Counted from the first letter of the stretch, positions 3,344 through 29,303 are shown. The stretch is DNA of 50,568 nucleotides from Nemertoderma westbladi (GCA_032718475.1 JAUCBJ010000323.1:1-50568), one strand, 5' to 3'. A program made the numbers and translations. Notes: generated from the letters alone by a model not told the origin.

Positions 3344-3485
3344 TGTGCTGTCTGGCTGTAGTCTGACTCAGGGATAAAAACTGTATAGGCCTAGTACCGG
3401 TATCTTTCTTGGTCTTATTGTCGGCAGGCCTACAGCTCTACATACTCTGCATATCTCTATCATTATTATATCGACATATCTCGTC

Positions 3486-3738: not shown

Positions 3739-4148
3739 TGTAAAGGCTTTTGCGGATCTAGCTAGTTATTTTCCCCGCAAAGTACTCTGTAGGTGTTTTA
3801 ACGGACATAAAAAGCCGTTTCCTTACTGTACCGGTGTTTTAGTGGACATAAAAAGCCATTTCTTCTGTATGTGTACTTTAGCGGACATAACTAGCGATCT
3901 TATGTCGCAATAATCCAAAATCCTCTTGATACAGTGTAGTTACCATGACGACATCTAACAGCTGATATGTACACGTGTAACTTTTTCTTTGTTCTTTGTT
4001 CGTTCTTTGTTCGGTCGACCAATCAGAGCGTTTTTTGACTCTGTGTTGGAGATTGTATACAGAAACTCATGCAATTCAGTCAGTATGTGTATTTTGTCCA
4101 CAGCCAGAAGACCGGCTTTGGAATTTCTGTGTTTCAGGCTTTAGCCAA
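3739..4148 (+). repeat. Element B 5' LTR, first part
   Basis: Near-identical to 44651-45060. Confidence 0.9.
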
Positions 4149-4277
4149 TATAGAATTATATTCCCTAAATGCCGTGGATTTTCAAAATTTTATTTTATTC
4201 GAATCAACTTTGCTAAAAGATTACATTGAGTCCTCATTTGTATTTGCTATTCCTATTTGAACGGTGATTAGTCAAGT

Positions 4278-4362
4278 GGTTCAGTAGCTCAGTCGGTAGA
4301 GCGTTGGAAATTATATGTAGTGTGTATTGAGTTCGAATCCTAGTAGGTGCGAATTATTTTTT
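4278..4362 (+). ncRNA. tRNA-derived Pol III-type unit in the A LTR (A box, B box, T-run); second copy at 19358-19442
   Basis: TAGCTCAGTCGGTAGAGC (A box with intact D-arm) at 4285, GTTCGAATCC (B box) at 4331, TTTTTT at 4357-4362. Acceptor and anticodon stems do not pair, so it is not a functional tRNA. Confidence 0.65.
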
Positions 4363-4429
4363 GTGCAGAATTTCAACTCATTTAAATTGACCGCTACAAA
4401 TTAATTGCATTTGCTCGAAGTAAGATTAA

Positions 4430-4580
4430 CCAATGAGACTGTAGTTATTAGATTGTAACCAATGTCGTACAAGTTATATATTTGCTGGACCAATAGCTAT
4501 CTTTAAAAACCTGTTAGAACCTATAGAACAATCGAGAATTTTCTCGATTGATTGCAGCACAAATTTGCTATATAAAGGTG
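4430..4580 (+). promoter_or_regulatory. Putative Pol II promoter in the A LTR: three CCAAT boxes ~30 bp apart plus a TATA box
   Basis: ccaat at ~4430, ~4459 and ~4490; tatataaa at 4569. Confidence 0.45.
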
Positions 4581-6043
4581 CGATTTCGTTCATTAGTTAT
4601 ATATTCTTATATCTCAGTTATCTATCGTATACATCACTATTACTTCTATTCTGTTTATTGTATAATAGTCATTGTTTGATTTTGTAATAAAAGTTAGAAA
4701 TACTTGTCACATCTGCCCTTTTCTATCTGTTTTATCATGCTTCACCACGGTGAACTCAATTGAGGGACAGGATGGCTGGCTAGACATTGGGCCACAGCAA
4801 TGAACGGGAACATCAACTGAATGTAGACAGGAGACAACCCGCAATATCACTCTTAGTTATTCGCCCATCGCCTGAAAGGTTAGACAGCGTTCGATGCCTT
4901 GCTACCTAAGTATAAGACCAAAGATCGAAGGTAGAAGTAGTGACACGCTGTACGCCTAAAATTACATCTAGGGACTGTACTGTTTTAATTCAGGAAAAAA
5001 CCGCAGTAGACCTTCATATTCCTACGGGGGGAGAGCAGGCAGAGATACTAGTACGCAGATAGGACGTAGGCACACCGGTACAAAGCATACACATTGGTAG
5101 GGTGCAGCAAACTGTACGCCTAACTCTTGCTAAGTACAGGTGCGTCTGCGACTATTTGTAGTACAACGGTGTCCATTGCATTAGAACTTGTAGGCTAGGA
5201 GGGTTACTGTGTTTCACCTGAATTAGGATTGTACCGTTCAGGCGGTAGGGCAGTTTATGACTGGGCGCAAATAAATTGAGGCTATTTTGGGATACTAACA
5301 TCTACCGTGTCCCCGCCGACATCCTGATAGGAAGTTACCAGCCCACCTAGGTAACCAAAATTCTAGATAGGACGCCAGGCTAGCTATTAGTAACCGTACG
5401 GCTACTGTAGTAAACTAACACATTTCTTCTTAGTATTAGGGACCTGGTAAAATAAAATTGCCGAATTCTGGGCGTAGCATTAACCTTATGCCTGAATTTG
5501 AGTCCTGGAAATACGCAAGAGGGGAAGGAGCCTTATCATTCATGAGTATTGGACCTACAAGTTACAAAATTAGAATATTCGTAAAATGCACACCGTACCC
5601 AGTAATTATATATATGAAGGAGCAAAACTGATCTTGACGGTTCAGAATTAACACACGCGCGTTAGAAATTATTTACACCTCAAAATATATAAAAATTAAC
5701 TTTTGTCCGTACTGCGCTTTGCCCGCTAGTTAGACATCTCCAAATCTCTGCACCTAGCTAGCGTCTCTTTCGCCCAACCATATAAATCACACCGCGGCAA
5801 AGTATACGAGCCCCTTAGTCCGTCAGTGAGTCAGCCTGATTTTAGGATTCGCTGCGCGGGATTTGTTTTATCGAAGTTTGTCTGCTCGTAGACTGTTTTC
5901 TGCCTCACCGGTTATAAGGGACCAATACTGCAATATATTCGCTTACTTGGAGTTTACTGTTTTGGTGAGAAGGTCGGATTTATGATTTGATTCACAAACT
6001 TTACAGTAAGATATTGCAGGTATTGTTACTGTCTCTTCAAATA

Positions 6044-6054
6044 GTAGGAATATG
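6044..6054 (+). promoter_or_regulatory. Element A primer-binding site, non-tRNA type, complementary to LTR 5015-5025
   Basis: gtaggaatatg abuts the LTR end; its reverse complement catattcctac is at 5015-5025. No TGG. Confidence 0.75.
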
Positions 6055-8681
6055 TTTTACTGAACTACGGTTCGGTAGGACTAAAGTTATTTGAAAATTT
6101 TGTATTTTGAGGTAAAAATTTATATTTGATTAGCTAAGTGCTAATTTTTTGAAATAAAATTTGATTTGAACCGCGTGTAAAATATTTTGGAATTGAATAC
6201 CAGTGTTTAAAAAGGGTTTAAATACCATATTGTACCGGTACAAAATTTTCGTAAAAGTAAAACCTAACTCTTTTGTTTTTTCAGGATTCAGAGCTCATTT
6301 CTAGACTGTAACGGGAGCAAGACCGTGTTTAGCAAGTTTGGGAGATAGATAACTCAACAACTTTGGTTGGGATAATCGCACTTCGTCCGCAACGCTGGAA
6401 ATGGAAAAGTTCACGTCCGGTTTGTATCTGGGAATCTGTTTTTCTGGAGAATTATTGGAGTGGGTGAGTTCGAAAAGTTGCATAAATAAGTTAGGCATTA
6501 CCGTATTAGTTAAAATTTATTGTGGGTTCCACTGTCTCAAGTATTTATGCATTCCGTACGATTTCTTTGTTCATTGCTGAATTAGTCCGTATTATTGTAT
6601 TTAATTTACCTTTTGATAACGCATATCGTTATCCGATTTATTTGTTATAAAATTGGCCGCTAGACTAATTTTATTATATACTTATTCCGTGACATTTATT
6701 TGCTGTAAAATTGGCCGTTTAGGCTAATTTTATCCATCTGCTATAAAATCGGCTGGTAGGCTAATTTTATATGACTGTAATTAATACCGTTTTGATATAA
6801 ATACGGTAAATTTGATACTTTGGCACTCACTTTACTTGACTTACAACTACCGAAATGAGTGACAAACAAGACTATACGAAGAATACACCTACCGACTATG
6901 ACTCATGTGACGGAGATAAGTCAGCAGCGGAAGAACTACAGGGGAATACTCGCGAGCCTACCGAACCTACACCGTGTGCGTCACCAGTACATCCAACGGG
7001 AGTACCGGATGCCGTAGTACGAGGCGACGGCAGGACCGAGGACTTTCTAACTGTTCCGCAACCTAGATACAGGGAAACGGACATGGTAAGTTCAGTAGGA
7101 AGCCAGGAGAGTGTGGTTAGAAGCGTCGGAGGATACATGGCGCATATTACCAGGAGTATTGGGGAAGGCCAACGCATATTAGACGAGTTAACCGCTCCGA
7201 TGTCTCGATTCGAGTTCTACACCCTCCAGGTTAGAGTACAAAGTAGAGTACATAAGTCCGTAGATAACCTTATCAGTCTACAAGATCTAGCTAGACAGAG
7301 ACAGGATATGGACACTCAGCTTAGAATCCTCGAGAAGTTAACGATCGTCAGGGAGAAACTAATTCAGTTTAAGTCGACGATTAGGCAGATACAACAGGAA
7401 CAAGCGGACCAGTTGTTAGGTGAGTCAGTTTCGGACGAATTATTGCAACCCAAGGAAGAACAGGAACTGTATAGGCTAGATGGACAATTGAAACACCTGA
7501 CGGATCACTTACGCATGTGCGGTGAGGACGTCGGAGATTGGGAAACCGTGCCGGAGGCTACGAGGGAAACTTCACTCGCACAAATCGAACTGGCACCGGG
7601 GACACTAGATCAATCACTGGTGAGTATTCGCAGCGAAATTGGCGAGGTGAGTATGGCTACGTCAGAAATTGCTCGACAACAGCAGCTCTACAGACAACAA
7701 CAGGAGATGGAGGAACAAACTCAACTGCTAATGGCACAAGCAGCCGTACAAGAAGAGAAACTACGCGTTGCGAATGTTGCAAGAATCTCTCATCTGCAAG
7801 AACAAGCCGAGTTGGAAGCAGCCGAGATGGAAAGGTTAGAGTTGGACATTGCGCAACAAACGGCGGCAGCGGCAGCGGCTGAGTTAGAGCGACAAGCGGC
7901 GGCGGCAGCGGCAGCGGCAGCGGCTGAGTTAGAGCGACAAGCGGTAGTGGCTGAGTTAGAGCGACAAGCGGCGGCGGCAGTGGCAGCGGCTGAGTTAGAG
8001 CGACAAGCGGTAGTTTCAGAAGCGAGAGCCGAGATGAAAAAACGGCAAATAAAGGCTCAATCAGCTATACGACAAGCGGAGTTCGAGGCGCAACAACAAC
8101 AGACGGAACAACGCGAGAAAGAACTTAAACTTCATTTCGAACTCGAGAAGAAGGCGAGAGAATTAGCCAACGCGAAGGAAGATCTAGATCTACAAGCCCG
8201 TGATCGATCGATGAGATCTCGAGACGGACACGATTTAGACCGGTTAGAGGTAAGACACCGCCAAATTCAGGAACGAATGAAGGAAGGTTCGATAGGAGCA
8301 CCTGGGCGGGAACGACAATTAGTTAAAGACTTATGTCAAAGATTCCCTCAGGTAACTCCTATGTTTGCACCGATTACGACTAAGGAACCTGTTTCAATTG
8401 CTGGTAGTAGTAACATTTCTCCTATTCATGGTGCGACGGAACACAGGTTTGTTATTCCGGACAAGTTTACACCGCCAAGAGCAACGTCATCGCCTATTCC
8501 GAAAGTCAAGGTAAGTAACCCACCGATTACAGATCGTAGTAGTTTGTTGACTGGACCTGCACTACTGACGACTAAACAGGTGAGTCAACCTTCGACACCT
8601 AAACCTGTTACACACTACGCTTACCCAATGACGTTTAGGCCTACAAGGCCTTTAGATCCAAACGCTGTCATTCGACCACCG

Positions 8682-9088
8682 AACCAGTTTACATCGCAAT
8701 CTACGACTTCGAGGAAGACTTGTGAGCCTACCGAACAACGGAGACCAGTGGATACGCGACCGTTCAACCAGTTTACATCGCAATCTACGACTTCGAGGAA
8801 GACTTGTGAGCCTACCGAACAACGGAGACCAGTGGATACGCGACCGTTCAACCAGTTTACATCGCAATCTACGACTTCGAGGAAGACTTGTGAGCCTACC
8901 GAACAATGGAGACCAGTGGATACGTGACCGTTCAACCAGTTTACATCGCAATCTACGACTTCGAGGAAGACTTGTGAGCCTACCGAACAACGGAGACCAG
9001 TGGATACGCGACCGTTCAACCAGTTTACATCGCAATCTACGACTTCGAGGAAGACTTGTGAGCCTACCGAACAACGGAAACCAGTAGA
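8682..9088 (+). repeat. 84-bp tandem repeat (~5 copies) in A gag
   Basis: Unit encodes NQFTSQSTTSRKTCEPTEQRRPVDTRPF; ggaagact recurs at 8713, 8797, 8881, 8965 and 9049. Confidence 0.95.
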
Positions 9089-12005
9089 CGATGTTCCGAA
9101 ACGGAATGTTAGAATTCGAACGACACAACGGACGCGAGCACGTCGACCACCGTATACTGGTGACAGTAGTACTTCAAGCGAGTCGGATTACCCGAAACGC
9201 GAGGTATTTAGAACAGGAGCGGCCGACGAATATAAACGTGAGCATTCAGATAACTCCTTTATCGATAATCCTCCACAAAATACACCAACACAGAAAGCGT
9301 TACAACCAACGGACGCAATTAGTACGCAACAACTCGCCGAAATAATGCGCCCAGTTGTCAACAAGATGGCCCAGATAGAGGAACGTTTAGAAGAAACTCA
9401 AACCGATAGTTCGCGAGGTAACGAGTTCGAACACTCTAGACACCCGAAGCAGCAAAGAAAACAACCCTCGAGAAACACTTCGTATCAAGGAAAAGCGCCA
9501 AGACGAGAGAACATCAACTCGATTGCCAACCAAGGACGCGAAACTTTGAACGTGGCCGAGGAGATAGCGAAATTCGCAGCGAGACAAGGTTTACCGGTAC
9601 AACAACCACCGAAGTTTTCAGGTAACTCGAAACATTGGCACACCTTTGTAGACTACATCGAGACACAAATAGCAGCGTGCGCCTTTACATCGAGGGAGAA
9701 ATTCAACTACCTGCTACAAACACTGCACTGACGGGAGAACCGAAATGTCTAGCGGAAACCTTTGTCGGTGTACCAGATGCCTTCGAACTAGCGTATGATC
9801 GCTTAACTTCGATTTACGGAGGCACGGTGAGTATGGCTAAGTCAGTGATAGAAGAACTCTGTAAGGGGGGGGCTATAACAAAACCCGTTGACTTACTAAA
9901 ATTAGCTGACGAGATTAAGAACGCCATTACTACACTACACTCGATTGGACAACTTGACTACGCGAACACTCCGACAGTTCTATTAAAAATAATAGGAAGA
10001 TTACACCATCGACTTCGTCGGGAGTGGCGAAAGATAGAATATCAGCGAGAAGAGAGAGGCGGATTCTTGAAGTTGGAAGACGTCTACTTACTGATATCCA
10101 GAGAGGCAGTCGTTGAGACGCGTTCGAACTATACGGACCAACATATCGTGGTGGAGGGAATAACATTACCATCCTCGAACCGACAAAAACCCCAAACAAC
10201 ATCCACCAAGATGGTTACTTACGCCACATCGACCGACACCCGACAATTTTCGGACAATAATAAGGTATCCGCACCAATCGGAACCAAACAGATCCGACAG
10301 CAACTGACCACAGACTTTAGCGGGTGCCAATATTGCGAACGACTAGGTAAACGACATACTGGCCATAAACTGAGAGGTTGTCGACTATTCCGCGAATTGA
10401 ACTCGGAGGAACGACGATTACAAATACGACCATTGGACTCTTGTTGGCGGTGTACGCTACATGGACATGTCCGTAAGGACTGCCCAAATACGGACACCTG
10501 TCCTTCTTGTGGACGCAACCACGACGGCTTGCTACATACCGACAGTCATACGCCGACCAAACGCTTCACCAGGGAACACCCGGAAGCTGCAGCAAGATGC
10601 AACACAGCATACAAGGGTCGAGAGTCGAAAACAACACCGACATTCGTGACGCACATTAGAGATTGTTTCTCGGAACAATCAGGATCGTCAGACGAAGAGT
10701 CGGAAGACGACGACGTTTACTTTGATACTGGAGACGAACAACCATCGATTGCGCTTCTGACGCCTGATCAATTAAAGGGGTTTAGTATAATTCCTGTCAA
10801 GATTACTGGCACAAAAGGGAGCAAGAGGATCTACGCTATCCTGGATTCAGCCTCATCTCATAGCTACGTGGATGAGAAAGTAGCTGACGTTGTGACGGAT
10901 CTCCGACAAGGTAAGAATGTCAGTTACACCGTAAGTAGTATGCATGGACAACGTGCAATACCAGTGACACGAGTTAAGTTGAACTTAGACACTCTTCTTC
11001 CGAAATCGCAACATAGCGAAAAGGAGAGGTCTTTGTTACCCTTTAAGGATTTAACCTTTGCGGCCACAAAGGACTTTAGTAACCTACTAGGTCCTGTCCC
11101 AGAACAATCCTTGGAGGACCGTAAGTACTTCAGACACCTTGGTGTACCTGAATGTCCTGTCAATTATAGATCGGTAGCAATGCTGATCGGGACAGATCAA
11201 TTCAACCTACATCAAGTGTGGGAAACCAGACCATCGGCAGTCGTAGCGGGAAACGCATACGCCTGTAGAACGCCGATAGGGTGGTATACTCGAGCGCCTG
11301 TGCGCACACTGGATATAAGTGACGAGGAAGACGATATACAAAGTACATGTAGTTTATTAACTACAACTTCGACTCATTCCTTTTCACACGACGTAGACTA
11401 TACTACACTACAGTCAAGTTCGACAAAACATGACACGACATGTGTAGCTAGTATGATAAGTCACAAGGAGCAGCTAACCCACCAGGTGAGTTTAGAACTT
11501 GAGGAGAAGACGAGTCAGCCAGAGATTCCATCGACGACAGATCATAACGCCGGAAGGCTTGCGAGTCTACCTACACCAATAACCTCAACAATGCCCGTCG
11601 ATATCGATGACGACGCGTTAAGAAATCATCAAGTGGAACAAGCTGCATTGGACAAAGAATTAACGGAGAAGACTATCAGGTGGTTAGAACAAGATACAGC
11701 TGAACCTGGTAGCTACGAACCATGTATGTCAGAACAAGAGAAACAATCTTTGAAGATCATGGAAGATACTATCCGCCAGACGAAAGACGGACATTATGAG
11801 GTAGGGATGCTATGGTGTAACCAACGTCCTAAACTTATAAATAACTATCCGCTAGCCTTAAGACGTTTACACTCAATACGACAACGTCTATTAAAGGACG
11901 AGAAAGCCCATCTGCAGTATAATACTCAGATGGAGACGTATTTGACCAAAGGATACGCTATCCGAATGACTAACCCAGAGATAGTGACTGACCAGAAAAT
12001 ACTAC

Positions 12006-14288
12006 TTGCCAGATCACTACGTGAGACACCCCGACAAACCAGACAAAGTACGTGTAGTCAATGACTGCGCGGCTCTGTTTGAGGGAATGTCCCTCAATAG
12101 TGAGTTAATGGATGGACCAAACATGAATAATTATCTTATGGGGGTGATTATGCGCTTCCGTCAGCGTCAAGTAGCCTTTACTTGTGACGTCGAAGCTATG
12201 TTTCACCAAGTGAGAGCGTTAGAGCAAGACAGAGACAGTTTAAGGTTCCTCTGGTACCCGGAAGGAGACTTAAGTCTACCACCGGTGACTTACCAAATGC
12301 AAGTTCGCGTTTTCGGTGCCAGGGACAGCCCAAACTGTACGATGTACGCCCTAAAGCAAGCCGCTAGGGATCAGAAACATATATATGACCCAGAGATAAT
12401 TAAGATCGTAGAACGTGACTTTTATGTAGACGATGGTTTACAGAGTTGTGACACAGTAGAACGTGCTATTACAGTAGCACATCAATTACGAGACTGCTTA
12501 GCGGGCGGAGGTTTTAACTTCACCAAATTCGCCTCAAACAGTGCCGAATTGGTAGACTCATTCGGAACGACTGAGCGTGGAGGTGGTGACATTGACCTAG
12601 AGTTCGAACCACTACCGACGACCAAGGTGTTGGGGCTCTTTTGGGACCCAAACACGGACAACTTTCGAGTGAAGGTGAGACTGGACACTCAAGAAAACAC
12701 TCTGACAAAGAGATCCTGCTTGTCAAAATTGAGTCGATTGTTCAATCCATTAGGATTCATCAGTCCAATAATACTGCAAGCCAGAATTTATATGCGCAGT
12801 ATTTGGAAGGATGGACTGACATGGGACGAGCCGATCTCATCAGAACAAGTGGACTTATGGAAAACCTGGGAGGCAGAATTATCTTCGCTAGAGGATTATT
12901 CCATACCCAGAGTCTACTTTCCATTACAAACGACGTTTCCTGACAACTTGGAATTACATTGTTTTTCCGACGCCAGTGACAACGGCTTTGGTGTGGCAGC
13001 GTACTTGCGCAGACAAGTAGACTCAGAAGAGTTCGATGTTTCGCTCATTACTTCTAAGGCTAAGACCATGCCTACTAAGTATATGACGACACCACGAGCT
13101 GAGTTACAAGCCGCAACCCTGTCAACCACAATCGTGAACCTTATACAGACGGAACTACAGTCAAGTTTACAGATATTTTATTGGACTGACGCGACGTTGG
13201 TTTTATTTTACATAAACAACGACACACTTGAATTCAAGACATTCGTAGCTAACCGTCGCGCAGAAATTCTAGACCGTTCAATAAAGGAAGATTGGCGACA
13301 TTGTCCCGGACCACAAAACCCAGCCGATATTGCGTCAAGAGGAATGATGCCTGAGGAATTCTGTAAACCGGAGAACAAAGAATTTTGGCAGCACGGACCA
13401 CAATTCTTGCAAAGATCAACACTACATTGGCCGCCACTATACGACAACAAGTCTAACACTATCCCTAAAGACGCGGAAATTAAAAAACCAAAGAAAGGGA
13501 AAGCAAAGAAAAGGACGACGGCAAAACTCAAGAAAAAACCGATGGCGAAATGCAATGATATAACTTCAAAGGTCAAGAACGGAAGACTTGCGAGCCTTTC
13601 TACACCAGACATATCGCCAGATGGTCAACCAGACGCGTTACTAGACGGTCAACCAGACACTTTGCCAGACATAGCACAAAATGTTCTACCAGACACTAGT
13701 AACATATTGACAAATAGTAAAGCCGCAGTTTCTCTATTGGAGCGGCCTTCTATTGACAAACAACCAGACGCGTTACTAGACGATCAACCAGACGTTTTGC
13801 TAGACACGTCACTAGATATTTCGCCGGATGTTCCGCGAAACATTTTACCAGACATGTCACAAAATGTTCTACCAGAAACTAGTAACATATTGACAAATAG
13901 TAAAGCCGCAGTTTCCCTATTGGAGCGGCCTTGTATCGACAAACTACCAAATTTGACACACTTGAGCAACAATAAGCACAGTGAAACCTCATGTATTACA
14001 GATGTGGGTAGTACCTACGCTAATGTAAATACAGGTGTTACTTTGCGCTCAAGAGACATACCAAACTTGCAACCTATGGTGAGACCCGGGATTAATATCG
14101 GCAGAAAAATAAGTTTACCGAAACCCAGTGACCCCATAGAGTTCAAACCACCATTAACGATCGACTTACAAAGTACTGACAACCAAGGTAAGAAAACAAA
14201 GAAGGACAAATTACTTGTAGACCCGGACGGATCAACAGTCAACAAGGGAATACCTACCGGCGGACCCGTGGGCCCTTTTAGTAAATAA
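12006..14288 (+). CDS. RT-RNase H segment of A pol
   Basis: YVDD catalytic motif, Pao-type RNase H motifs, then a low-complexity linker with an ~183-bp duplication. Confidence 0.9.
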   Translation: MPDHYVRHPDKPDKVRVVNDCAALFEGMSLNSELMDGPNMNNYLMGVIMRFRQRQVAFTCDVEAMFHQVRALEQDRDSLRFLWYPEGDLSLPPVTYQMQVRVFGARDSPNCTMYALKQAARDQKHIYDPEIIKIVERDFYVDDGLQSCDTVERAITVAHQLRDCLAGGGFNFTKFASNSAELVDSFGTTERGGGDIDLEFEPLPTTKVLGLFWDPNTDNFRVKVRLDTQENTLTKRSCLSKLSRLFNPLGFISPIILQARIYMRSIWKDGLTWDEPISSEQVDLWKTWEAELSSLEDYSIPRVYFPLQTTFPDNLELHCFSDASDNGFGVAAYLRRQVDSEEFDVSLITSKAKTMPTKYMTTPRAELQAATLSTTIVNLIQTELQSSLQIFYWTDATLVLFYINNDTLEFKTFVANRRAEILDRSIKEDWRHCPGPQNPADIASRGMMPEEFCKPENKEFWQHGPQFLQRSTLHWPPLYDNKSNTIPKDAEIKKPKKGKAKKRTTAKLKKKPMAKCNDITSKVKNGRLASLSTPDISPDGQPDALLDGQPDTLPDIAQNVLPDTSNILTNSKAAVSLLERPSIDKQPDALLDDQPDVLLDTSLDISPDVPRNILPDMSQNVLPETSNILTNSKAAVSLLERPCIDKLPNLTHLSNNKHSETSCITDVGSTYANVNTGVTLRSRDIPNLQPMVRPGINIGRKISLPKPSDPIEFKPPLTIDLQSTDNQGKKTKKDKLLVDPDGSTVNKGIPTGGPVGPFSK

Positions 14289-14456
14289 AAACCTTCCAAA
14301 TTCTCCATTGACTTACCTGATGACGTCACAAATACTTACGTCGACCGTATTGTAAACTTAACAGATTCTTGGACAAACGCTTGCCGAAAATTAGCGTGGA
14401 TTGTACGTTTTGTACAATACGTTAAAGGCAAACGCGACTTTACACGTCGACTTACA

Positions 14457-15848
14457 TTGACTGAGATTGACAGGTGTGAAATTAAATTAATTCGCCATTA
14501 CCAACTGCGATATTTCGCACGCGAATTCACATCTATAAATCAAGGTCAACCAATCAAGTCGTCACCAATATTGAGTTGGAGTCCGATAATTTATAATGGC
14601 TTAATTTGTCATAAATCTCGGCTTCAAAATATTGACTTTAATACTGACTTTAGGTACCCAATAATAATACCGCAACATCACGAGTTACAACGTGCAATGA
14701 TACTGGACGCACATTTACATCTGAAACACGCTGGAAGACACCACTGTCTTTCCTACTTACGTACAAGATTTGTATTAAGTAGACCCAGTAAAGCGTTAAG
14801 TTCAGTGACACGTACGTGTATTATTTGTAAAAAGGTACACTCTAGAATAGGTACCCAAGAAATGAGTGAACTTCCACAAGCACGACTTCAAGCATTCAGA
14901 CCACCTTTCACAGAGACTGGAATTGATTGCTTTGGTCCCATACATACGAAACGTGGACATATACTAGTAAAACGCTGGGGACTGATTTTCACATGTATGT
15001 CCAGTAGGGCAGTTCATATTGAACGTGTGATGGATCTTTCCACCAACGCGTTTATACTAGCATTGCGGCGATTTATCGCCAGACGCGGACTAGTGAAATG
15101 CTTGTACTCAGACCAAGGGACAAACTTTGTTGGTGCTCGAAATGAGATTGCTAGAGCCTTTAAGAAATTAGATCATGATCAAATCTCAAACGAACTACGT
15201 CCTTACAAGATTGTTTGGAAGTTTAATCCTCCAGATAGTCCATGGAGAGGCGGAGTCTGGGAGAGATTGATCAGATCTATCAAAACGGCAATGGCAAAGG
15301 TCATTCCAGTAAACCACATATTGACAGACGACCAACTGACAACACTGTTTGTTGAAATCGAGGCAATACTAAATACTAGACCAATAGTATTAGTACCCGA
15401 TGACAAACAATCCCAGTTTGCTTTAACACCAGCACACCTGCTTATGCAGGCACCGACTACTTTGACGCCTATTTCTTTTCCAATAGAAGGCGATAGCTAC
15501 GGTAGAAAAGCGTGGAAAATCACGCAACTACTAGCTAACAAATTCTGGGAAATATGGCAAAACCATTATTTGCCCTCTATTTCTGCCAGAACAACATGGT
15601 ACAATAACACCCGCGCATTAAAGCCGGGAGATCACGTGCTGTTAGCGGAAGTGAATCTAAAAAGACGCTTCTGGATAACAGGTGTAATTTTAGCCACACA
15701 TCCATCTATGGATGGAGTGACAAGAACTGTGACGGTACGGACAATTGACGGTCGTACAGTAGACAGACCGACTCAACGTCTCGTACTTCTTGAAGAGACT
15801 CGTAACGAGTCTGGAGACTACAAATCTCCAACAAATGTTAGTAAATAA
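14457..15848 (+). CDS. DDE integrase segment of A pol
   Basis: HHCC zinc motif; D (GIDCFGP), D (SDQGTNF), E (WERL); Pao-type C-terminus RPTQRLVLLE. Confidence 0.92.
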   Translation: MTEIDRCEIKLIRHYQLRYFAREFTSINQGQPIKSSPILSWSPIIYNGLICHKSRLQNIDFNTDFRYPIIIPQHHELQRAMILDAHLHLKHAGRHHCLSYLRTRFVLSRPSKALSSVTRTCIICKKVHSRIGTQEMSELPQARLQAFRPPFTETGIDCFGPIHTKRGHILVKRWGLIFTCMSSRAVHIERVMDLSTNAFILALRRFIARRGLVKCLYSDQGTNFVGARNEIARAFKKLDHDQISNELRPYKIVWKFNPPDSPWRGGVWERLIRSIKTAMAKVIPVNHILTDDQLTTLFVEIEAILNTRPIVLVPDDKQSQFALTPAHLLMQAPTTLTPISFPIEGDSYGRKAWKITQLLANKFWEIWQNHYLPSISARTTWYNNTRALKPGDHVLLAEVNLKRRFWITGVILATHPSMDGVTRTVTVRTIDGRTVDRPTQRLVLLEETRNESGDYKSPTNVSK

Positions 15849-16407
15849 TTAGGAGTTTACAAATAGATTTCCACATACCTGTACACCATAGTAAGGACAG
15901 CGGTAGAATTCCATTGTCTTTATATGTGAACATTGAGGGTAGTACCCTTATGTGTCACATAGGAGCGGGATTTGTAGGTATAAGAAATGGAATTCTACTT
16001 GGAACTCACAATATTGAGACATTTTCGAAATTTTAGACAATCCATTTGGATTCGAAAATTTTTAAAATTTTCTCCAGTGAATAGATTTCAGGGTACACTG
16101 TACAGTCGGGTGGAACTTAAAATTAGAGAAACAAGAGAGGAAGACTTGCGAGCCTTTCTTAAAATTTTAATTAAATTTTACACGGTCTTGTTTCAATAAG
16201 TTACGTCAAAATAGACTTCCCTATATTTATTACTAACTCTTGACTGCTTATTTTCTGATAATAGTTTGGGATCAAAAAGTGAGTATTTTAGACTCACAGC
16301 CAGTTTAGCCCAAATTCGTTTTTTATTTCGGCAAAAAATTTTAGATAAGAAACAGTGTGTCATTAAAGAAACCCTAGATCTTAGGCTATGGGTAGGAGGT
16401 TAGAGCG

Positions 16408-18376
16408 TTGTCGAGCCAAAAGGGCAGACGAAAACTCTCACGTCTCCTCACAACTAACTACAAACTCTGTTGTATTCCCTCTAGTAGTAATGATTATGTA
16501 ACTACACCTCAAATTATGGAGAAGGAGATACATGGAGAGCCGAGATGGGGATATGATATCCAAGAGGAAGCAGCAGCGCCATTCGAAAGATTTGGAGCCA
16601 AAGACTACACTATATTTGGTATAAAAGAATTATCAGAAAGTACTGCGAAACTCGCGAGAACTAAATATGACTCGAATGTATTAAAAAGAAGGCAAAACGC
16701 ATTAAATGAAAGAATCGAAAGTTTGCGCAAAACCTTCAATGAACTTTACCCGTACGACGCTTTGTGTGATACGGGAGACATTAGCGAAGACCCCGATACT
16801 GAAATTAGTCGTTTGTATCATACCATGCAATACCTAAAGGCGCACGAACCTATGCCCGCGGTACGCGATGAATTCGATGGAATGCACCTTTACAGACGAA
16901 CTCGAGGGGACGATAGAGAAACCAAGGAAGCATTTTCAGTTTATAAACTTTATTATCAATGCGGTTCTTGTATGCGCGAACAACGAAATGCGATTCCAAT
17001 GCGTTTGAATAAGGAAAATCCCGAACCGATATTGGCGAGGTGTTCGAACCATCAACAACTACGCTACCAGGAAGGAGGGTATCCTTTATCAAATCCATAT
17101 CATTCGTTTGCTATCACCGGACCAAAGGCGGGAGAAACTGTCGTTTACCCACCCAAGGTTGTTGAACCCGATGCATTTGAACTTACGCTGGACGAGGCGA
17201 ATCAGTCAACCCGCGAAAAGAAAGAAGCTCTTAGCCTATACAGAGCCTACAAGGTTTTCGAGAAAGGTGAGATGGAAGAATGGGGCGGAAGACTCGCGAG
17301 CCTACCTTACCATTGGACGTCACACGATCAAACTTCAGCTAAGGAGATGACACCGGAAATTTTCGAAAGTATAAACTTTGCCCAAAATGTTCAATCGTAT
17401 CACATATGGTGAATTTGACCGTTTTCGAACTGAAAAGCGGAATAAGGGAGCTTGGTTAACCGTCGCATGGGCATACCGAGCCGCGTTTTACCACAAACGT
17501 ATACGAGCGAGCGTATTCGAGGAAGAGGAGATCCTAGAGGCGACAAATATACCAGCCACTCCGGTTGCGCCGTCTGCACGTCACCCTCGGGAGGACGGAC
17601 AGGGTAGGATCATAAGGGCCGACTAAGTTATTAGTTTATTAATTATTTACTATTTATACTGTAATTACGTTTTATAATAAATTGTTCTGTACATTACATC
17701 TTTATCGTTGAGTCGGGCATTGTCACGCTCTCGGTAAAGTTGTACATGTACATAGTGTAATTACGTTTTATATTGGTTTTAGGTTAGCGTAGTGTAATAT
17801 TGTATTTGTAACCAAGTAACATAAAGGACCCCCTTGGAAATAAGCTGCAAAGCTTTAGGGGTAATCCTATATGTTATGTTGGACAATACCTCTATACCGG
17901 TACATTGTTTGGTGTATTTGTTATTGTTTTTACATAATGTATAAATAAATCTATCTATCTATAGGGTCCAGAAAGTGAGCCAACAATTAAAGAAGTCTAT
18001 TAATATAGAAGAACGCAAGGGAGTTGAGCCGACTATTCGAATTACTCGGGATACGGTATCGCTTCCTAGAGAACCAACAGGAGGATCGGGACATACACCA
18101 GCTGATCAAAAGGGGGCGCAAGCTACTCTTGGGTCTGCGTCGTCCGCTTCTCGCGCGTTCCCAGACGTTTTACCAACTGTAGTGACAACTGATCGGTCAC
18201 GAGGAATCGGTCGAGGTTTTGGGATGCCAAATAGACGAATTTGCGAGGAAATAGTCGCACCGTCTCTCAACGTCCAAACGAAACCAGTGACTCGCCCCAC
18301 GAGTCCCATATCGCGAGCAAAGTCACCTGTGCGCAGTTTTCGAGGACGTGGCAGGGCTCGATCAACTAAGCGATAA
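16408..18376 (+). CDS. Element A accessory ORF(s) downstream of integrase, function unknown; possibly spliced or frameshifted (16408-17412, 17378-17626, 17975-18376)
   Basis: 334-aa ORF with YYQCGSC...RCSNH. An AT-rich intron-like gap (~17605-17964) ends in tctatag. The last segment is basic and Ser/Pro/Arg-rich. Confidence 0.6.
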
Positions 18377-18481
18377 AAGGGAGGGCAAGGGTGGACGGAA
18401 GACTCGTGAGCCTTTCTTGTGAATTTTATGATTTATTTGAGTTATATATTTAATTAGTAAGTTTTGTATTCTGGAAGAACT

Positions 18482-18600
18482 CATATTTAGTAAGATTCAT
18501 ATTTAGTAAGATTTATATTTAGTAAGATTTATATTTAGTAAGATTTATATTTAGTAAGAATTTGTATTCAGTAAGAATTTGTATTTTGCAAGATTTATAT
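18482..18600 (+). repeat. 16-bp AT-rich minisatellite in the A 3' untranslated region
   Basis: atatttagtaagattt-type units in tandem. Confidence 0.8.
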
Positions 18601-19220
18601 TTTATATTTGTGTTTATTCCGAACTTATGCAATTTATATTGTTCCGAATATTATGCAATTTATATCTTATAAGCAGTATTTGTATTTACAGTGAAATAGA
18701 AAGTAAGAGTAGATGGAAGACTCGTGGGCCTTTCTTATAGTTTCATTTGTAAAGTGTTATATTTTGTATTTAGAAAGTTTTATAGTTAGAAAGTTTTGTA
18801 CTTAGAAAGACTCATATTTGTAATTATTCCGAACTTATGCAATCTACATTTAGGCACGAAAGTATTTGTAATTATTTGAATTTATGCAATATTTGAGATG
18901 CAATAGTAGATGGAAGACTCGCGAGCCTTTCTTATGATTTTCATTTATTTGTATTTGTAATTGTTTGAATTTATGCAATATTGAGATGCAATAGATTTAT
19001 ATTGGTGAATTTAATTTAGATTTATATTGTACTTACTTAGTAAAGCCTTAAATATGTAAAGTTTGAATTTGTAATTATTTTGTATCGAATCATTATGTAG
19101 AAAGGAAGTATTGTTTGAAATTTAATTTGTAATATATGTAAGTACGCCCTAAGTATTCTATAATTTGATTGATTATTGGTGAAAACCGTATATTTTATGC
19201 ACGATAATATCCTGTTTTCA

Positions 19221-19228
19221 TGGAGCGG
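19221..19228 (+). promoter_or_regulatory. Element A polypurine tract
   Basis: tggagcgg immediately before the 3' LTR; same core as the B PPT. Confidence 0.75.
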
Positions 19229-21122
19229 TATAGAATTATATTCCCTAAATGCCGTGGATTTTCAAAATTTTATTTTATTCGAATCAACTTTGCTAAAAGA
19301 TTACATTGAGTCCTCATTTGTATTTGCTATTCCTATTTGAACGATGATTATTCAAGTGGTTCAGTAGCTCAGTCGGTAGAGCGTTGGAAATTATATGTAG
19401 TGTGTATTGAGTTCGAATCCTAGTAGGTGCGAATTATTTTTTGTGCAGAATTTCAACTCATTTAAATTGACCGCTACAAATTAATTGCATTTGCTCGAAG
19501 TAAGATTAACCAATGAGACTGTAGTTATTAGATTGTAACCAATGTCGTACAAGTTATATATTTGCTGGACCAATAGCTATCTTTAAAAACCTGTTAGAAC
19601 CTATAGAACAATCGAGAATTTTCTCGATTGATTGCAGCACAAATTTGCTATATAAAGGTGCGATTTCGTTCATTAGTTATATATTCTTATATCTCAGTTA
19701 TCTATCGTATACATCACTATTACTTCTATTCTGTTTATTGTATAATAGTCATTGTTTGATTTTGTAATAAAAGTTAGAAATACTTGTCACATCTGCCCTT
19801 TTCTATCTGTTTTATCATGCTTCACCACGGTGAACTCAATTGAGGGACAGGATGGCTGGCTAGACATCGGGCCACAGCAATGAACGGGAACATCAAAGGA
19901 ATGTAGACAGGAGACAACCCGCAATATCACTCTTAGTTATTCGCCCATCGCCTGAAAGGTTAGACAGCGTTCGATGCCTTGCTACCTAAGTATAAGACCA
20001 AAGATCGAAGGTAGAAGTAGTGACACGCTGTACGCCTAAAATTACATCTAGGGACTGTACTGTTTTAATTCAGGAAAAAACCGCAGTAGTCCTTCATATT
20101 CCTACGGGTGGAGAGCAGGCAGAGATACTAGTACGCAGATAGGACGTAGGCACACCGGTACAAAGCATACACATTGGTAGGGTGCAGCAAACTGTACGCC
20201 TAACTCTTGCTAAGTACAGGTGCGTCTGCGACTATTTGTAGTACAACGGTGTCCATTGCATTAGAACTTGTAGGCTAGGAGGGTTACTGTGTTTCACCTG
20301 AATTAGGATTGTACCGTTCAGGCGGTAGGGCAGTTTACGACTAGGCGCAAATAAATTGAGGCTATTTCGGGATACTAACATCTACCGTGTCCCCGCCGAC
20401 ATCCTGATAGGAAGTTACCAGCCCACCTAGGTAACCAAAATTCTAGATAGGACGCCAGGCTAGCTATTAGTAACCGTACGCCTACTGTAGTAAACTAACA
20501 CATTTCTTCTTAGTATTAGGGACCTGGTAAAATAAAATTGCCGAATTCTGGGCGTAGCATTAACCTTATGCCTGAATTTGAGTCCTGGAAATACGCAAGA
20601 GGGGAAGGAGCCTTATCATTCGTGAGTATTGGACCTACAAGTTACAAAATTAGAATATTCGTAAAATGCACACCGTACCCAGTAATTATATATATGAAGG
20701 AGCAAAACTGATCTTGACGGTTCAGAATTAACACACGCGCGTTAGAAATTATTTACACCTCAAAATATATAAAATTAACTTTTGTCCGTACTGCGCTTTG
20801 CCCGCTAGTTAGACATCTCCAAATCTCTGCACCTAGCTAGCGTCTCTTTCGCCCAACCATATAAATCACACCGCGGCAAAGTATACGAGCCCCTTAGTCC
20901 GTCAGTGAGTCAGCCTGATTCTAGGATTCGCTGCGCGGGATTTGTTTTATCGAAGTTTGTCTGCTCGTAGACTGTTTTCTGCCTCACCGGTTATAAGGGA
21001 CCAATACTGCAATATATTCGCTTACTTGGAGTTTACTGTTTTGGTGAGAAGGTCGGATTTATGATTTGATTCACAAACTTTACAGTAAAATATTGCAGGT
21101 ATTGTTACTGTCTCTTCAAATA
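19229..21122 (+). repeat. Element A 3' LTR
   Basis: Direct repeat of 4149-6043, followed by TSD gccaa. Confidence 0.95.
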
Positions 21123-21127
21123 GCCAA

Positions 21128-21859
21128 ACATTAGTAGGCTTAGGTCATAGAAACGTATAACTGTTATCAAACCATAAACACCTCATTTTTACTGCTATTT
21201 ACTGTCGGTTATTAATTATATCAGTTGATGGAATATTATTATATTGGATAATATCGATAAATAATTATAAAACCCCAAATCTTCTTGATATACTGAAGGT
21301 AAGAGACCGGTTACATATAACAATTGCGACTTACATTATATTGGTTTTGGAGTGAATCTAATGCTATTTCATAGGCACTACATGTGTCGGTTGTTGTTCT
21401 CTTTATATGTGACTAAAATTAGTGAAGGTCGGCAGATCAGTGTGCAGTATTGTGCGGTAGTGTGCATGATTGTGACTGATAACAAAGCATCTCCTAAAGA
21501 ATGCGCTTTATACGTGAATCAATAGCCATCCCGTTGTGTCTAGTGTAAGTCATAACTCTGTTTACATATTTAGAGTGCCACGTCCTAAAGGAACTGTTAA
21601 TATTTCCCGAAAGTGAATAATATTTGTCAGAAATTATATATTAACGATCAGTCGAATAATACAGTAGGCCTACACCGCAATAAGGTCAAAGCTTCCGAAT
21701 TCAGTCTCCCGGGTATATCCAGCGGGTGAATGGTCGCGCATAGACTGGCTTCGGCTAATGTAGTGTATCAAATACTCGTCATAGGCTAAAGTCGATTTAT
21801 AATCTAGAAGACATCTAAATTTGGCAGGTTAAACTGCTAAAGGTCTGAAAGCGCAAACA
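21128..21859 (+). repeat. Element B 5' LTR, second part
   Basis: Continues the LTR after A; matches 45061-45718; ends ...gcgcaaACA, like 816 and 46893. Confidence 0.88.
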
Positions 21860-21870
21860 ATAACAGTTAT
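21860..21870 (+). promoter_or_regulatory. Element B primer-binding site, non-tRNA type, complementary to LTR 21157-21167
   Basis: ataacagttat abuts the LTR end; ataactgttat is at 21157-21167. Confidence 0.7.
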
Positions 21871-22276
21871 TAAGTTCTGATTGCAGTGTAGGCATTAAAT
21901 ATAGTTGTCTATTGTTCTGGTAGGAACAATAACAGTTATAATATTCTGATTGCAGTGTAGGCAATAAATACAGTTTAATATTGTTCTGGTAAGAACAATA
22001 ACAGTTATTGCTTCTGTATTGCAGTAGGCAATAAAGCTGAAGTACCGGTCAACCGGTACCCAGTAGGCCTAACTACCTAACCACCCGAACCGGTACTTAC
22101 AGCAGTACAGGTACAGCAGTATTATTTCGATTGTGATATATTGTATATTGTAGGCTGTTAGGGGATTAGTGATTGATCACCCCTTATTCCTTTGTATGGT
22201 TTACTTATTTCTGTCAGTTTTATTTATTTGTAGGCTAATATTGAGCAGAAGACGTGTAAGCCTGCTAGGATTGTAC

Positions 22277-24307: not shown

Positions 24308-27300
24308 ATGTCTGACACAAAGCAAAACCTGTCAGACAGTCTCCTAGATACAACCATCTGTGACCCAGACAGGAGTGTGGAACGTGTGAGACCGAAGTTC
24401 AACTCACCTCCTACTGTAAGAAAGATCATCCCTCCAGTAGTAGTATCAGACCCTAGGCTAGTCCAACACCATAGGTCTATCATAGGCACTTGAGCTCAGG
24501 TCAAGTGGGACCAAGAAGCAGCGGAACAGCAGCAACACTCGAGCCGAGAACTTATTTCTCAGCGGCCCGACAGCTCCAGTAGTAGTGCGGATACTGTAGA
24601 GCTGACACCCGAGTGCGGAGCAAAGATGGCAGATGCGGTTTATTCGGATCCCCTTCTCATCCTTCCTGCAGCCGTACTCACTAGGGTATTGATTGCGGTG
24701 GAGGAACACCAGATTGATTGGGCGACAGCCCAGTAAGCGATCGACCAAGGATAGTTATGAGGGATATACAAGGGAAGAACTGAAGTCTATTGTCGAGTCG
24801 CAATGGAACTTCCCCGGACCCGGACTCCCGTTTGACTTATCGGAAGCTGCCTGGGAAGACATACACAGGATGGGAGTGACAAAAGAAACCAGCGATCCAG
24901 CTGTGTGGAAGAGGTCAGCAGCAGGATACGTACAGGGATTCTTCAGCTCTATGGAGCGATTAGAGGAACAACTGTTTCGACAACCACAAGGACCTCAAGA
25001 GCAGGGAGAGCTGCTTTATCAAGTTAGAGAAAGAATTCTAAGAATCAGACTAATCTTATCGGCCTTTGAGGAGGCTTCGAAAAGAAGACAAGACACGTCG
25101 TTGCAAGTTGCCGTAAAGACTTGGTTTCAGCGGGTGAGTCTCAAAGTTCAAAGAACTGCCCCGTGGAAATCTCAGTTGGCTGAGCGCTCAACCCATGGAG
25201 AATCAACAGACGCTACCTTTTCCCAAGTGGAAAGTGAAGTGACAGCAGAAAAACCGCATAAGAGGGATGCTATTGACATCTATCTGTCAGACTATCAACG
25301 ATTTGTAGGTGACGAAGAGTTGAGGAGACGGCTGTCTGGACTTAGCCCTAATAGTGAAGGAGCCAAGCTTGTGTTGGACGCAATCGATGCGGATATGATA
25401 GCTGCGAACCAAGCTAAATTTGATGAAAGGCTCCGCATCGCTAGGGTCCAAGAAGAACAAGTCAAGAAAAAACGTATAGAAGACAGAAAGACAGCAGCAG
25501 CGGCAGTGGCAGCGGCAGAAGCAGAAAGAAAAGTGGCAGAAGTGGAAAGAAAAGCGGCAGATGCAGCGGCAGAGGCAAAAGTGGCAGCGGCAGAAGCGGA
25601 AAGAAAAGCGGCAGAGGCAGCGGCAGAGGCAAAAGCGGCAGCGGCAGAAGCGGAAAGAAAAGCGGCAGAAGCGGAAAGAAAGCGAGCAGTGGCAGAAGCA
25701 GAATGAAGAGCATCTGAAGAGACCACCCAACTAGAGTTGGAAAATATTCAAGAGAATCAAGACTGCATAAATAAACAGTTAACAGCTAGTCAAATGCAGA
25801 TGATGAGTCGATCTACTCCCAAAAGACAGGGATTTACATCCTCTGATGAAGGCGATACCACCGATCCTGAAGGTGGAGGAAATAGATCTCGTTTAAGTAG
25901 GCGTAGAAGAATGTCCCACCGTCAGAAATTGCCTGATTTGCCCCCAGCTGTTAGAAGGCAACTAACTAACACAGACTTAGGTAGTATAGAACCCACAGAC
26001 CAAATAATTAAAATAGAAAGACTCCCTACTATAGTAGATGAGCCTGAAATAATTAGGCCTGTTCTCGAAGCCACCCCTTCGGTGATAGAGACACCTGTAC
26101 TCCCAGAACCTACCTCTAAATTCCCTTTGCACAGTACTAAACTACCTGTGCCCAGTAGGACTGTTCCCGAGTCCGAACCCGTCCTGGACGCCGAGCAAGA
26201 CATCAAGAATTTATCGCCCGTCGTCTCTCGTCTGCCCGCTACTACGTTGGCGGCTCCCGCTTCGGCGGTCGAGTGGGTGGATGAGGGGCGGCGAGGGATG
26301 AATCTCCTGCTCAGGCAGATGCAGGAGACTGTTCATCAGTTTAAGGGAGCAGTAAGGGAAAGTAGGTTAGAGTTGCAAGAAGTGCAGCAAAGTATCGCGT
26401 TAGAACGCGATAAATTAGTAAATATACAAAGGGGTATACCACCAACCCCGGTAACAATGTGTCAACCTGTTAGGTCTGAAGTAATTCATGCGCAAGGTGT
26501 GGAGCCTACACGCATCTATACTGCTAGTGAAGTAGAAACTCCTATAGTAAACCCTATTAAGGGTAATTATAAACCTGTTGACAATGATATTCCATATAGA
26601 CCTGATAATAATCCGAGAAATTTATATACCGATAACTCGATATTAAATAATACGATGGCCCAAGAAAGTTTTACGCGTCAAATGGCTAGAACCGAAGCCC
26701 GTCAAGCGGTAAAGGTGGGAGAGATCGTCAAGTTCAATGGAGATGAGATGAAATGGTTACCTTTTAATGAATATTACAAAGATAACATACAGAACTCTGT
26801 GCTATCTAATGGAGAGAAACTTAGATTCCTCATCGAGTGCTTGGAAGGATCTCCCAAGTTAATGGCGTTAAAGTTTATTGGACATCCAGATGGATTAAGA
26901 CAAGTTTGGGATACACTGAACATCAGGTATGGTAATAGGACTAACATAGCTAGATATTTATATGCGAAATTAATGGCGCCCCGAAAGTTTCTTAGCAGCG
27001 GGATTATAGAGTTTTCCGACGAGATTCAGGAGATCTGTAGACAACTAGATTGGTTAGGTAAGTCTCATGAATACCAGAATTCTATGGTTGTAGGAGTCTT
27101 AGCATCTACTTTGCCCAAGGGTGGAGTAGGTACACGCTGGGACAAGAAAGTGTTATATATGATGGAACAACAACGAAGAGAGCCTACCATGGCTGATCTC
27201 ATGTCATTCTTAGATGGAGAGGTAAAATTACAGCTCCTAAGGCAGTCCAGAGAGAAGACACCGGAAAATAAGGTAAGTGAGAAACCCGTTTCTAGGAGAA

Positions 27301-29303
27301 AGTTAATACCAGTGTGTTATACAGACGACGGCGAAAGCCAGGCTTCTCAAGAGGAAGACAGCGGGAAAGACACTGAAAGATCTTACTATGACAACAAAGC
27401 GCCTAAGGACGTAAGTAAATTCAAGTCTCGAACCAATGACAGGAGAGAACAGGTAAGAAAAACTCCTCCTACGTCTCCTAAGAGAATTCATGTAAGAAAG
27501 CCCGAGGAAAGAACGAGTGTGCACAACGTTACCCAAAGTAAGGTAAGTAACATCAAACCAAAATGTGTGCTGTGCGACGGGCCCCACCGTTTAAGTGCGT
27601 GTGATGAATTCATGAGGAAATCATTAAAGGATAGACGGGAAGTCATGTGGGATAAGCGGTTGTGTTATAATTGCCTCAGACAAGGACACCAACGGCGAAC
27701 CTGTTACTCCGACGCAAGGTGTGCGAAGTGCGGCGCAAAACATCATATCTTGTTGCACACTGAATTCGAACGAAACAGCCCGAGTCAGGTAAGTGAGTCC
27801 GAACTACATGTCCAATTCAGTGATGTGAACGACACTGACCAAAGTTCTGAGATGGAAGGATTCTATACGGACGAATTCTCCGACGAGAACGAATCCTGTT
27901 ACCAGATAAATACCGCAGTGTATCGAGCACTTACGTATGAAAAGGACACCGACAGCGAGCTCCCCCTAACTACTTCTGACCGACAACCATCTTGGAAAGC
28001 ACCAACTTCCAATGTAGGAATCCGAGAATTTCCCATAGTGCAGTTGAGGGTCCACGGACCTGAAAGGAGTTATATAGTGAACGCCCTCCTTGACTCCGGT
28101 AGCACAGGAACATTCATCGACAAAGAACTAGCCGAAGACATCTTTGCTGGACAACCCAAGTTCCGAACTAAGTTAAACATGTCAGGAATTATGCAGGTTT
28201 GGAAATCTACAGTAATAGCGGATTATTATGTAGGTGCGTTGTCCACCCCCCAGGATGAACTAGGAGAACACAGCATAAGGTCAGTAAAAATGGTGGCGAT
28301 AAAGAACTTCGCTACCAGCCAAGTAGAACCTTATAACTGGGATGAGGACGATTCCACCCAGCAGCTTAATATACCTAGATTCAACACAGACTACCCTGGA
28401 GTGCAAATACTCATCGGCCAAAATGCGCATGAGGCGCTTGAGACATTGGAGAAACGGCCTGCTCAACCGCAACCACTACAAGCCTATGCGGGAAGAACTA
28501 GAGTAGGTTGGTACTTTACTGGCCCTTCCCGTAGAACTCTCATAGAAAGGTTACCAAAAGAACGGGTATACCAAGTAAGTGAATGGGAAGCGGAGAGCAG
28601 TGAGGTGGACGACCCAACTGAGGGAACACCATACTCCTCAGATAATGACGATATTAACTCCAATGTAGATCAATGGAGACATTGCCCCGAGACGATTAAT
28701 CTAGCCGACATCGCTTCCAGAGGAGCAACTCCTCAAGAACTGACAGATACTCCAGACTGGTTAGGTGGACCCGACTTCCTAAGTAAAGAAGATGAATGGC
28801 CTCCCCATCTTACCACGGCTGAGATTAGACAAGCCAAGGGAGCGGAGAAAGTCAAACCTAAAACCCGGACGAGTAAATCAAGGTTATTTAAACCCGTGAT
28901 AGATCTGTCTGTACTACACATTGCCAGGGACGACGCTGTGGATCTAAACTCCCCCACCGCGAACCGATCTGTTGTGGAGATCAGAGAGAGAGACTGGAGA
29001 TCTGGAACACCAGACGTCTCGCCGGGACTCTCACCTCTCCTGCCGGGAGCGATGGACCACTATAGATCCTGGAATCGGCTTTGTAAGGCCGTCGTGTATT
29101 TGAAGCGATGTTTCTATCGTCACTATTCCAGGACGAAGAGGAAACCTGGAATTGTCTTCGAGACACAGCAGCTCAATCGCCCAGTTGGTCGTTTATGTTT
29201 ACTGGAACGAGACCGAGAACTGTCCGGAAACTATGGAAGGCAAGATACTCTTCCCACGACCACCTCCCTAATCCAACAAACATCTAGGGACTCCCCAACG
29301 TAA
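24308..29303 (+). pseudogene. Element B gag-protease with in-frame remnants of RNase H and integrase; RT and the IN core are deleted
   Basis: Gag: KFNGDEMKW; knuckles CVLCDGPHRLSAC, CYNCLRQGHQRRTC, CAKCGAKHHILLH. PR: LLDSGS. Then WRHCPETINLADIASRG, SWNRL and RPVGRLCLLE with no YVDD or DDE. Stops at 24491 and 25704 plus a frameshift. Confidence 0.88.

Follow-up and report, generated by a model that had tools for sequence, protein, structure and literature searches.

Self-priming among LTR retrotransposons is described for Tf1 and Tf2 of Schizosaccharomyces pombe and Tj1 of S. japonicus, elements of the Tf1/sushi group of Ty3/gypsy (PMC7175516, PMC4600332). In Tf1, the first 11 bases pair with its primer binding site (PBS); RNase H cleavage falls between bases 11 and 12 (PMC7175516). 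Self-primers have also been predicted, by the criterion of at least 10 bp complementary to the 5′ LTR and starting 0–5 bp after it, in the Tcn1 clade of Ty3/gypsy and in the plant TAR lineage of Ty1/copia (Houba, Osr-1), and self-priming is therefore not confined to one superfamily (PMC6317226). For the third superfamily, BEL/Pao, the ICTV profile of the Belpaoviridae (PMC8742986) describes a PBS for tRNA-Arg or tRNA-Gly and tRNA-primed replication, and it quotes a range of 4.2–10 kb for the elements and of 0.2–1.2 kb for their LTRs. The words PBS, tRNA, "primer binding" and "self-prim" are absent from a survey of BEL/Pao (PMC3118150), and a search of the open-access literature and bioRxiv found no report of self-priming in BEL/Pao.

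Here, we report that two unrelated BEL/Pao LTR families in one 50-kb window of Nemertoderma westbladi DNA (GCA_032718475.1, JAUCBJ010000323.1:1-50568; the window is the whole stretch of 50,568 nt that was analysed) show the Tf1-type self-primer geometry, a signature that has not been described for BEL/Pao in the open-access and bioRxiv literature searched. We consider it likely, on the strength of the sequences, that the elements of one of these families (B, C and D type) are primed in the manner of Tf1 by an 11-nt segment of their own LTR and not by a tRNA.

Self-comparison and direct reading of the sequence resolve the window into a nested set of LTR retrotransposons, here called A to D (Table 1). 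The insertion of A splits the 5′ LTR of B, which has a total length of ~1142 nt, and A is flanked by a GCCAA target duplication at 4144–4148 and 21123–21127. The 3′ LTR of B is truncated at 45719, where the LTR of C starts, and C runs on to the end of the window. D represents a third subfamily that is 76–78% identical to B and C by self-comparison; the end of its LTR adjoins a LINE-like ORF on the opposite strand, and the window contains no PBS for D. This ORF (758–3367, minus strand, 869 aa), which abuts the D LTR end, encodes a PHD finger, an endonuclease/exonuclease/phosphatase domain and the start of an RT domain. At the border between B and C (45691–45726), the B 3′ LTR stops ~23 nt past an AATAAG hexamer, at the position that AATAAA occupies in C and D, and is joined directly to the first base of the C 5′ LTR. 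We considered this junction as a replication-derived mark of the R/U5 border and set that reading aside, because a plain nested insertion of C explains it; most simply, the junction is such an insertion, the far side of which lies outside the window. The interior of B also holds a satellite-like array (30000–41000) of five units with a period of ~2.1–2.2 kb, made of 146-bp sub-repeats, as well as two opposing arrays of 15/17-nt repeats at 42702–43293 and 43403–43904 (unit TTGAAAAATATCGAGAG and the reverse complement), which form a large inverted structure in B.

Table 1. Coordinates of the elements, of the proposed primer and primer binding sites and of the PBS variants. Positions are counted from the first letter of the window; X1–X4 are four public DNA runs, for which depth and contig numbers are given in this order.
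Feature	Position	Strand	Sequence	Remarks
D LTR fragment (solo or 3′ LTR)	1..816	+	ends ...GCGCGAACA	variant 11-mer at 77-87
B 5′ LTR, left part	3739..4148	+	begins TGTAAAGG	99.3% match to 44651-45060
Element A, nested BEL/Pao	4149..21122	+		LTRs 4149-6043 and 19229-21122
A PBS	6044-6054	+	GTAGGAATATG	complementary to 5015-5025 and 20095-20105 in its own LTRs
B 5′ LTR, right part	21128..21859	+	ends ...AAACA	resumes after GCCAA duplication of A
B proposed self-primer 11-mer	21157..21167	+	ATAACTGTTAT	exact reverse complement of 21860-21870; LTR position 440
69-bp tandem repeat	21856..22035	+		2.6 copies; unit includes last 4 LTR bases and PBS
B PBS	21860..21870	+	ATAACAGTTAT	starts at first base after 5′ LTR end
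B coding remnant	24693..29303	+		gag (DUF1759), zinc knuckle, aspartic protease motif, then post-RNase H segment
B polypurine tract	44643-44650	+	GGGAGCGG	directly before 3′ LTR
B 3′ LTR	44651..45719	+		polypurine tract before it; 11-mer at 45090-45100
C 5′ LTR	45719..46893	+	begins TGTAAAAG, ends ...GTACA	AATAAA at LTR position 984
C proposed self-primer 11-mer	46152..46162	+	ATAACTGTTAT	LTR position 434
C PBS	46894..46904	+	ATAACAGTTAT	offset 0 after LTR
PBS position 1 variant	46894		A>G	depth 45%, 41%, 55%, 100%; contigs 39, 31, 14, 3
PBS position 10 variant	46903		A>T	depth 32%, 12%, 32%, 100%; contigs 26, 13, 4, 2
PBS position 11 variant	46904		T>A	depth 40%, 22%, 44%, 100%; contigs 30, 19, 6, 2

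Judged by their predicted protein domains and closest relatives, A and B are BEL/Pao elements (Belpaoviridae). A matches the Pfam families Peptidase_A17 (1.6e-41), DUF5641 (1.8e-21) and Integrase_H2C2, and its pol has ~44% identity with polyproteins of BEL/Pao elements from mussel, coral, sea urchin, hemichordate and fish; B matches DUF1759 (2.4e-12), and its post-RNase H segment resembles that of A. The gag-PR proteins of the two are only 22% identical. The Tf1/sushi group of Ty3/gypsy was also weighed as the family and was rejected, since the Pfam domains are exclusively of the Pao type and the best relatives are BEL/Pao polyproteins. B and C are without RT and integrase and, therefore, unable to prime with enzymes of their own. 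Searches with A pol, alone and as a 20-sequence alignment, returned no relative in viral contigs, and two exact LTR patterns gave 0 matches, the first in viral, metagenome and genome contigs and the second in metagenome and genome contigs only. Within 6840–17412, A carries long ORFs of 695, 267 and 812 aa that lie upstream of gag-pol and are without a Pfam match, the 812-aa ORF aligning with the gag-PR of B; a coding tandem repeat of 84 bp is found at 8682–9085. The polypurine tract together with its lead-in is nearly the same in A (19215–19228, TTTTCATGGAGCGG) and B (44637–44650, TTTTCTGGGAGCGG).

In B and C, the first 11 bases after the 5′ LTR are the reverse complement of an 11-mer within that LTR. 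On the plus strand of the window, ATAACTGTTAT occurs at 21157–21167, 45090–45100 and 46152–46162, and its reverse complement ATAACAGTTAT at 21860–21870, 46894–46904, 21929–21939 and 21998–22008; these 7 sites compare with 0.10 expected, and 0 of 100 shuffles reach 7. The pairing is exactly 11 bp in both elements, with the neighbouring base unpaired on both sides, and a complement of at least 11 nt starting 0–5 nt after the LTR was obtained in 25 (B) and 15 (C) of 5000 mononucleotide shuffles of the LTR. An earlier note on this DNA, made by a model from the sequence alone, had placed the 11-mer and the PBS correctly in both elements, in which the complement starts at offset 0, but its coordinates had implied that the 11-mer lies near the start of the B LTR; because A splits this LTR, the actual position is 440 of ~1142. 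The split of the B LTR, the two additional PBS copies of B and the BEL/Pao affiliation had escaped the note. The note had also described the first ~400 bp of the C LTR as replaced, with homology to B starting just before the 11-mer. The C and B LTRs are unalignable only over approximately positions 51–350, and homology is back ~90 nt before the 11-mer. The shared motif of B and C, ATAAC-N-GTTAT, is a palindrome except for its centre. C has one PBS, whereas B has three (at 21860, 21929 and 21998) by way of the 69-bp tandem repeat, and the extra copies in B may be a by-product of mis-annealing of the near-palindromic PBS during strand transfer.

The surroundings of the two sites have features of their own. 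From 2–10 nt past the 11-mer on, each of the four LTR copies has a stretch with a sequence and length of its own (21168–21190 versus 45101–45200 in the two B LTRs, 46163–46220 in C and 88–140 in D); the B 5′ and 3′ LTRs, which are 98% identical elsewhere, differ here by a 75-nt indel, and the conserved TACTGCTATTTACTGT returns downstream of the variable stretch. The LTRs of B, C and D also have in common a splice-donor-like motif 142–168 nt after the 11-mer, i.e., AAG|GTAAGA at 21296–21304 in B, CAG|GTGAGA at 46305–46314 in C and CAG|GTTAGA at 242–251 in D. Directly after the PBS, C contains a hairpin with an 11-bp stem (46906–46932; core CUUAUUGC...GCAAUAAG), and B contains a weaker one, UUGCAGUGUAGGCAA (21875–21900), which is repeated with the 69-bp tandem unit.

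Element A represents an independent case. Its 11-mer lies at position 867 of 1895 in an LTR with a sequence unrelated to those of B and C, and this 11-mer is not palindromic. Despite the unrelated LTR, the pairing is once more exactly 11 bp at offset 0, in agreement with the earlier note, which had pointed to the same length and position of the pairing in A; at least 11 nt of complement was found in 26 of 5000 shuffles of the A LTR. In A, the flanks of the two sites (4998–5054 with 6014–6073) pair further, at −43.6 kcal/mol versus a shuffled mean of −32.5, and 1.7% of the shuffles are as good (0.017); it is the flank upstream of the 11-mer that pairs with the sequence following the PBS. In the folding model, this extra flank pairing hints that the RNA of A starts upstream of its 11-mer. 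In B and C, the flanks outside the 11 bp do not surpass shuffled flanks in pairing (a fraction of 0.52 of the shuffles for B and of 0.77 for C was at least as good), and an extended structure like that of Tf1 is therefore not seen in these two elements; covariation is powerless to address such a structure with only two to three sequences.

The D subfamily made it possible to follow the two sites through sequence change. While the near-palindrome of B and C cannot separate a complement from a repeat with one mismatch, the D motif can: TAAACTGTTAC, at 77–87 of the D LTR, is non-palindromic and differs from the B/C motif at positions 1, 2 and 11. From this motif, the earlier note had predicted that a D-type PBS would read GTAACAGTTTA. 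Contigs of this organism from four public DNA runs (X1–X4, from three studies) were mapped to 46840–46945 with thresholds of at least 80% likeness and a variant share of at least 3%; 946, 607, 319 and 19 contigs, respectively, mapped on the C LTR end and PBS. Variants were seen at seven places in total, i.e., 46871, 46879, 46880 and 46890 in the LTR end and three in the PBS (Table 1; contig depth is not copy number). At 46890, a T>A change converts the ...GTACA end of C into the ...GAACA end of D in 47–55% of the depth. Within the PBS, only positions 1, 10 and 11 vary at a share of at least 3%, and the variant letters give GTAACAGTTTA, i.e., the reverse complement of the D LTR motif. Moreover, loose-end lines in X2 and X3 have the D-type LTR end (...GCGCGAACA) running straight into GTAACAGTTTA. 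The prediction was borne out in the four DNA runs, with the three predicted letters found and no variant at the other PBS positions at this share. By our rough estimate, a match by chance to the correct three of eleven positions and to the correct letters has odds of ~1 in 4,500. On these sequences, three compensatory pairs keep the pairing intact between the B/C type and the D type.

The contigs are 60–90 nt long, and none spans both the LTR 11-mer and the PBS; the link to the D type is the shared LTR end. The sample from which the assembly was made may be among the runs, which are independent of the copies in the window, not of the genome. Among contigs mapped on the D LTR, no variant was seen at 77–87 among the 40 of 81 entries listed, and the D motif is therefore typical of its subfamily. 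When the D-type PBS was sought in the loose ends at 816 of D, the contigs broke at the end of the LTR, a mixed line (agreement 0.57) coming from X4 only. The D-type pairing can also be read as at least 13 bp, with TA before the D motif and TA after the PBS in one contig; thus, 11 bp is not universal. In X1–X3, the G at PBS position 1 is commoner by depth than the variants at positions 10 and 11. This may reflect a third subtype with the PBS GTAACAGTTAT and a predicted LTR motif ending in C, or mismatched copies. The B/C/D family as a whole is represented by thousands of contigs in the reads.

No TGG is present within 0–5 nt of the 5′ LTR end in A, B and C, and these elements, therefore, have no site for a tRNA 3′ end there. 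The B leader has its sole TGG 58 nt downstream, and the first 60 nt in C contain none. In the window, no tRNA genes were found and no Rfam family matched. In the predicted RNA fold of C, the 11-mer pairs with the PBS in both the MFE and the centroid structure, with pair probabilities of 0.68–1.0; in A, the helix forms with pair probabilities of 0.23–1.0, and in the predicted fold of B it is absent (pair probability ~0.001). AATAAA occurs at position 984 of the C LTR and at position 623 of the D fragment; from its position in C, R would measure roughly 570 nt and U5 ~165 nt.

Complementarity between an LTR and its leader could also arise in other ways. A real long-range RNA–RNA contact that serves genome folding, dimerisation, packaging or a translation switch, with priming by another primer, is unlikely in our view, even though covariation shows selection on the pairing and not its use, the near-palindromic motif of B and C would allow two RNAs to pair PBS to PBS, and the fold of B does not favour the intramolecular helix. 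What such a contact leaves unexplained is that the pairing in A, B, C and the D type has its start precisely on the base that follows the LTR, the place required of a primer 3′ end if U5 is to be defined, and no alternative primer site is seen, given that TGG is missing from the first 0–5 nt. We regard it as rather more improbable that the 11-mer is a TATA box in U3, transcribed only at the 3′ end of the RNA, from where it would pair with the 5′ leader in cis or between co-packaged RNAs. The 11-mer overlaps TATAA in B and C (GTATAAC) and TATAAA in D (GTATAAAC), and the ~90-nt block upstream, conserved between B and C, is promoter-like. However, a promoter element has no cause to covary in complement with a PBS, and a primer cut from the 3′ U3 would presumably sever R and block the first transfer in cis. 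Furthermore, C contains a separate TTTATAAG 32–39 nt upstream of the 11-mer, a motif absent in B and D, which would put the RNA start of C at about the 11-mer.

Two further readings do away with RNA pairing inside the element. That a palindromic DNA site, e.g., for a dimeric factor, is present in both LTR and leader, with complementarity as a by-product, would suit the near-palindrome ATAAC-N-GTTAT and its three copies in the B leader, but the D LTR motif and the A 11-mer are both non-palindromic. A repeat of the D motif predicts T, A and C at PBS positions 1, 2 and 11, whereas in the contigs position 2 has no variant and the variant letters are G at position 1, T at position 10 and A at position 11, as expected of a complement and not of a repeat. 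This makes the palindromic site very improbable, and the same D-type PBS letters rule out the caveat, raised in the earlier note, of a merely repeated near-palindromic TATA-like motif. That a host small RNA, be it a tRNA fragment or something else, shares the 11 letters of the LTR by chance and binds the PBS is barely credible: no complement to CCA (TGG) is present, and the two subfamilies would need two matching host RNAs and A a third.

Tf1-like self-priming accounts for a pairing that begins at the very place needed for the 3′ end of a minus-strand primer and for the lack of any other apparent primer site. The geometry proposed in the earlier note is supported by the exact 11-bp pairing at offset 0 and by the D-type covariation. 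In the proposed mechanism, R would contain the 11-mer, a contiguous primer, with the transcription start at it or a few bases before it. By folding back across ~700 nt of R-U5 in B and C, or ~1000 nt in A, the RNA would bring the 11-mer onto the PBS; RNase H would then cleave behind the 11-mer, and the freed 3′ end would be extended by RT through U5 and R. Once the first strand transfer is made, the 11-mer would be restored from the 3′ copy of R, and the primer would be copied back into the PBS in plus-strand strong-stop synthesis. Such copying-back would account for the joint change of LTR motif and PBS. The scheme needs the 11-mer within R but not as its very first base. We speculate that the length-variable stretch after the 11-mer is the mark of the cut and strand-transfer point.

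As in Tf1, Tf2 and Tj1, A, B and C are without a tRNA PBS, and the PBS that follows the 5′ LTR complements a segment of their own LTR; the length of the pairing, 11 nt, is that given for Tf1. By contrast with these Ty3/gypsy chromoviruses, the elements described here are BEL/Pao (Peptidase_A17, DUF1759, DUF5641), the loop between primer and PBS is ~700–1000 nt, extended flanking structure is undetectable in B and C, and the elements are known from sequence alone. With exactly 11 nt at offset 0, A, B and C all fall within the sequence criterion used to predict self-primers in the Tcn1 clade and the TAR lineage; those are elements of plants and fungi and of other superfamilies, and three compensatory changes are found here besides. 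With canonical BEL/Pao elements (genus Semotivirus), the elements share gag-PR-RT-RH-IN polyproteins with Pao-type domains, LTR ends of the TG...CA type, a short target duplication and a polypurine tract. They differ from them in that A, B and C have no TGG-type tRNA site and a PBS that pairs with their own LTR. A is also very large for BEL/Pao, at ~17 kb with LTRs of 1.9 kb against the 4.2–10 kb and 0.2–1.2 kb in the ICTV profile.

We tentatively propose, with slightly more doubt than belief, that self-priming is general in a large part of animal BEL/Pao, each lineage having a private R-region primer/PBS pair that is rewritten in each cycle. Such a system would free the elements from host tRNAs and would let the RT-less B, C and D elements be copied by compatible BEL/Pao enzymes, and the variable stretch would be a scar of RNase H cleavage and transfer. 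If self-priming in BEL/Pao is true, it occurs in all three LTR-retrotransposon superfamilies, and in animals, and the origin of retroelement priming becomes testable in a third lineage. Annotation pipelines that seek only a tRNA-type PBS would then miss or misjudge such elements, and host defences that use PBS-directed tRNA fragments would not reach them.
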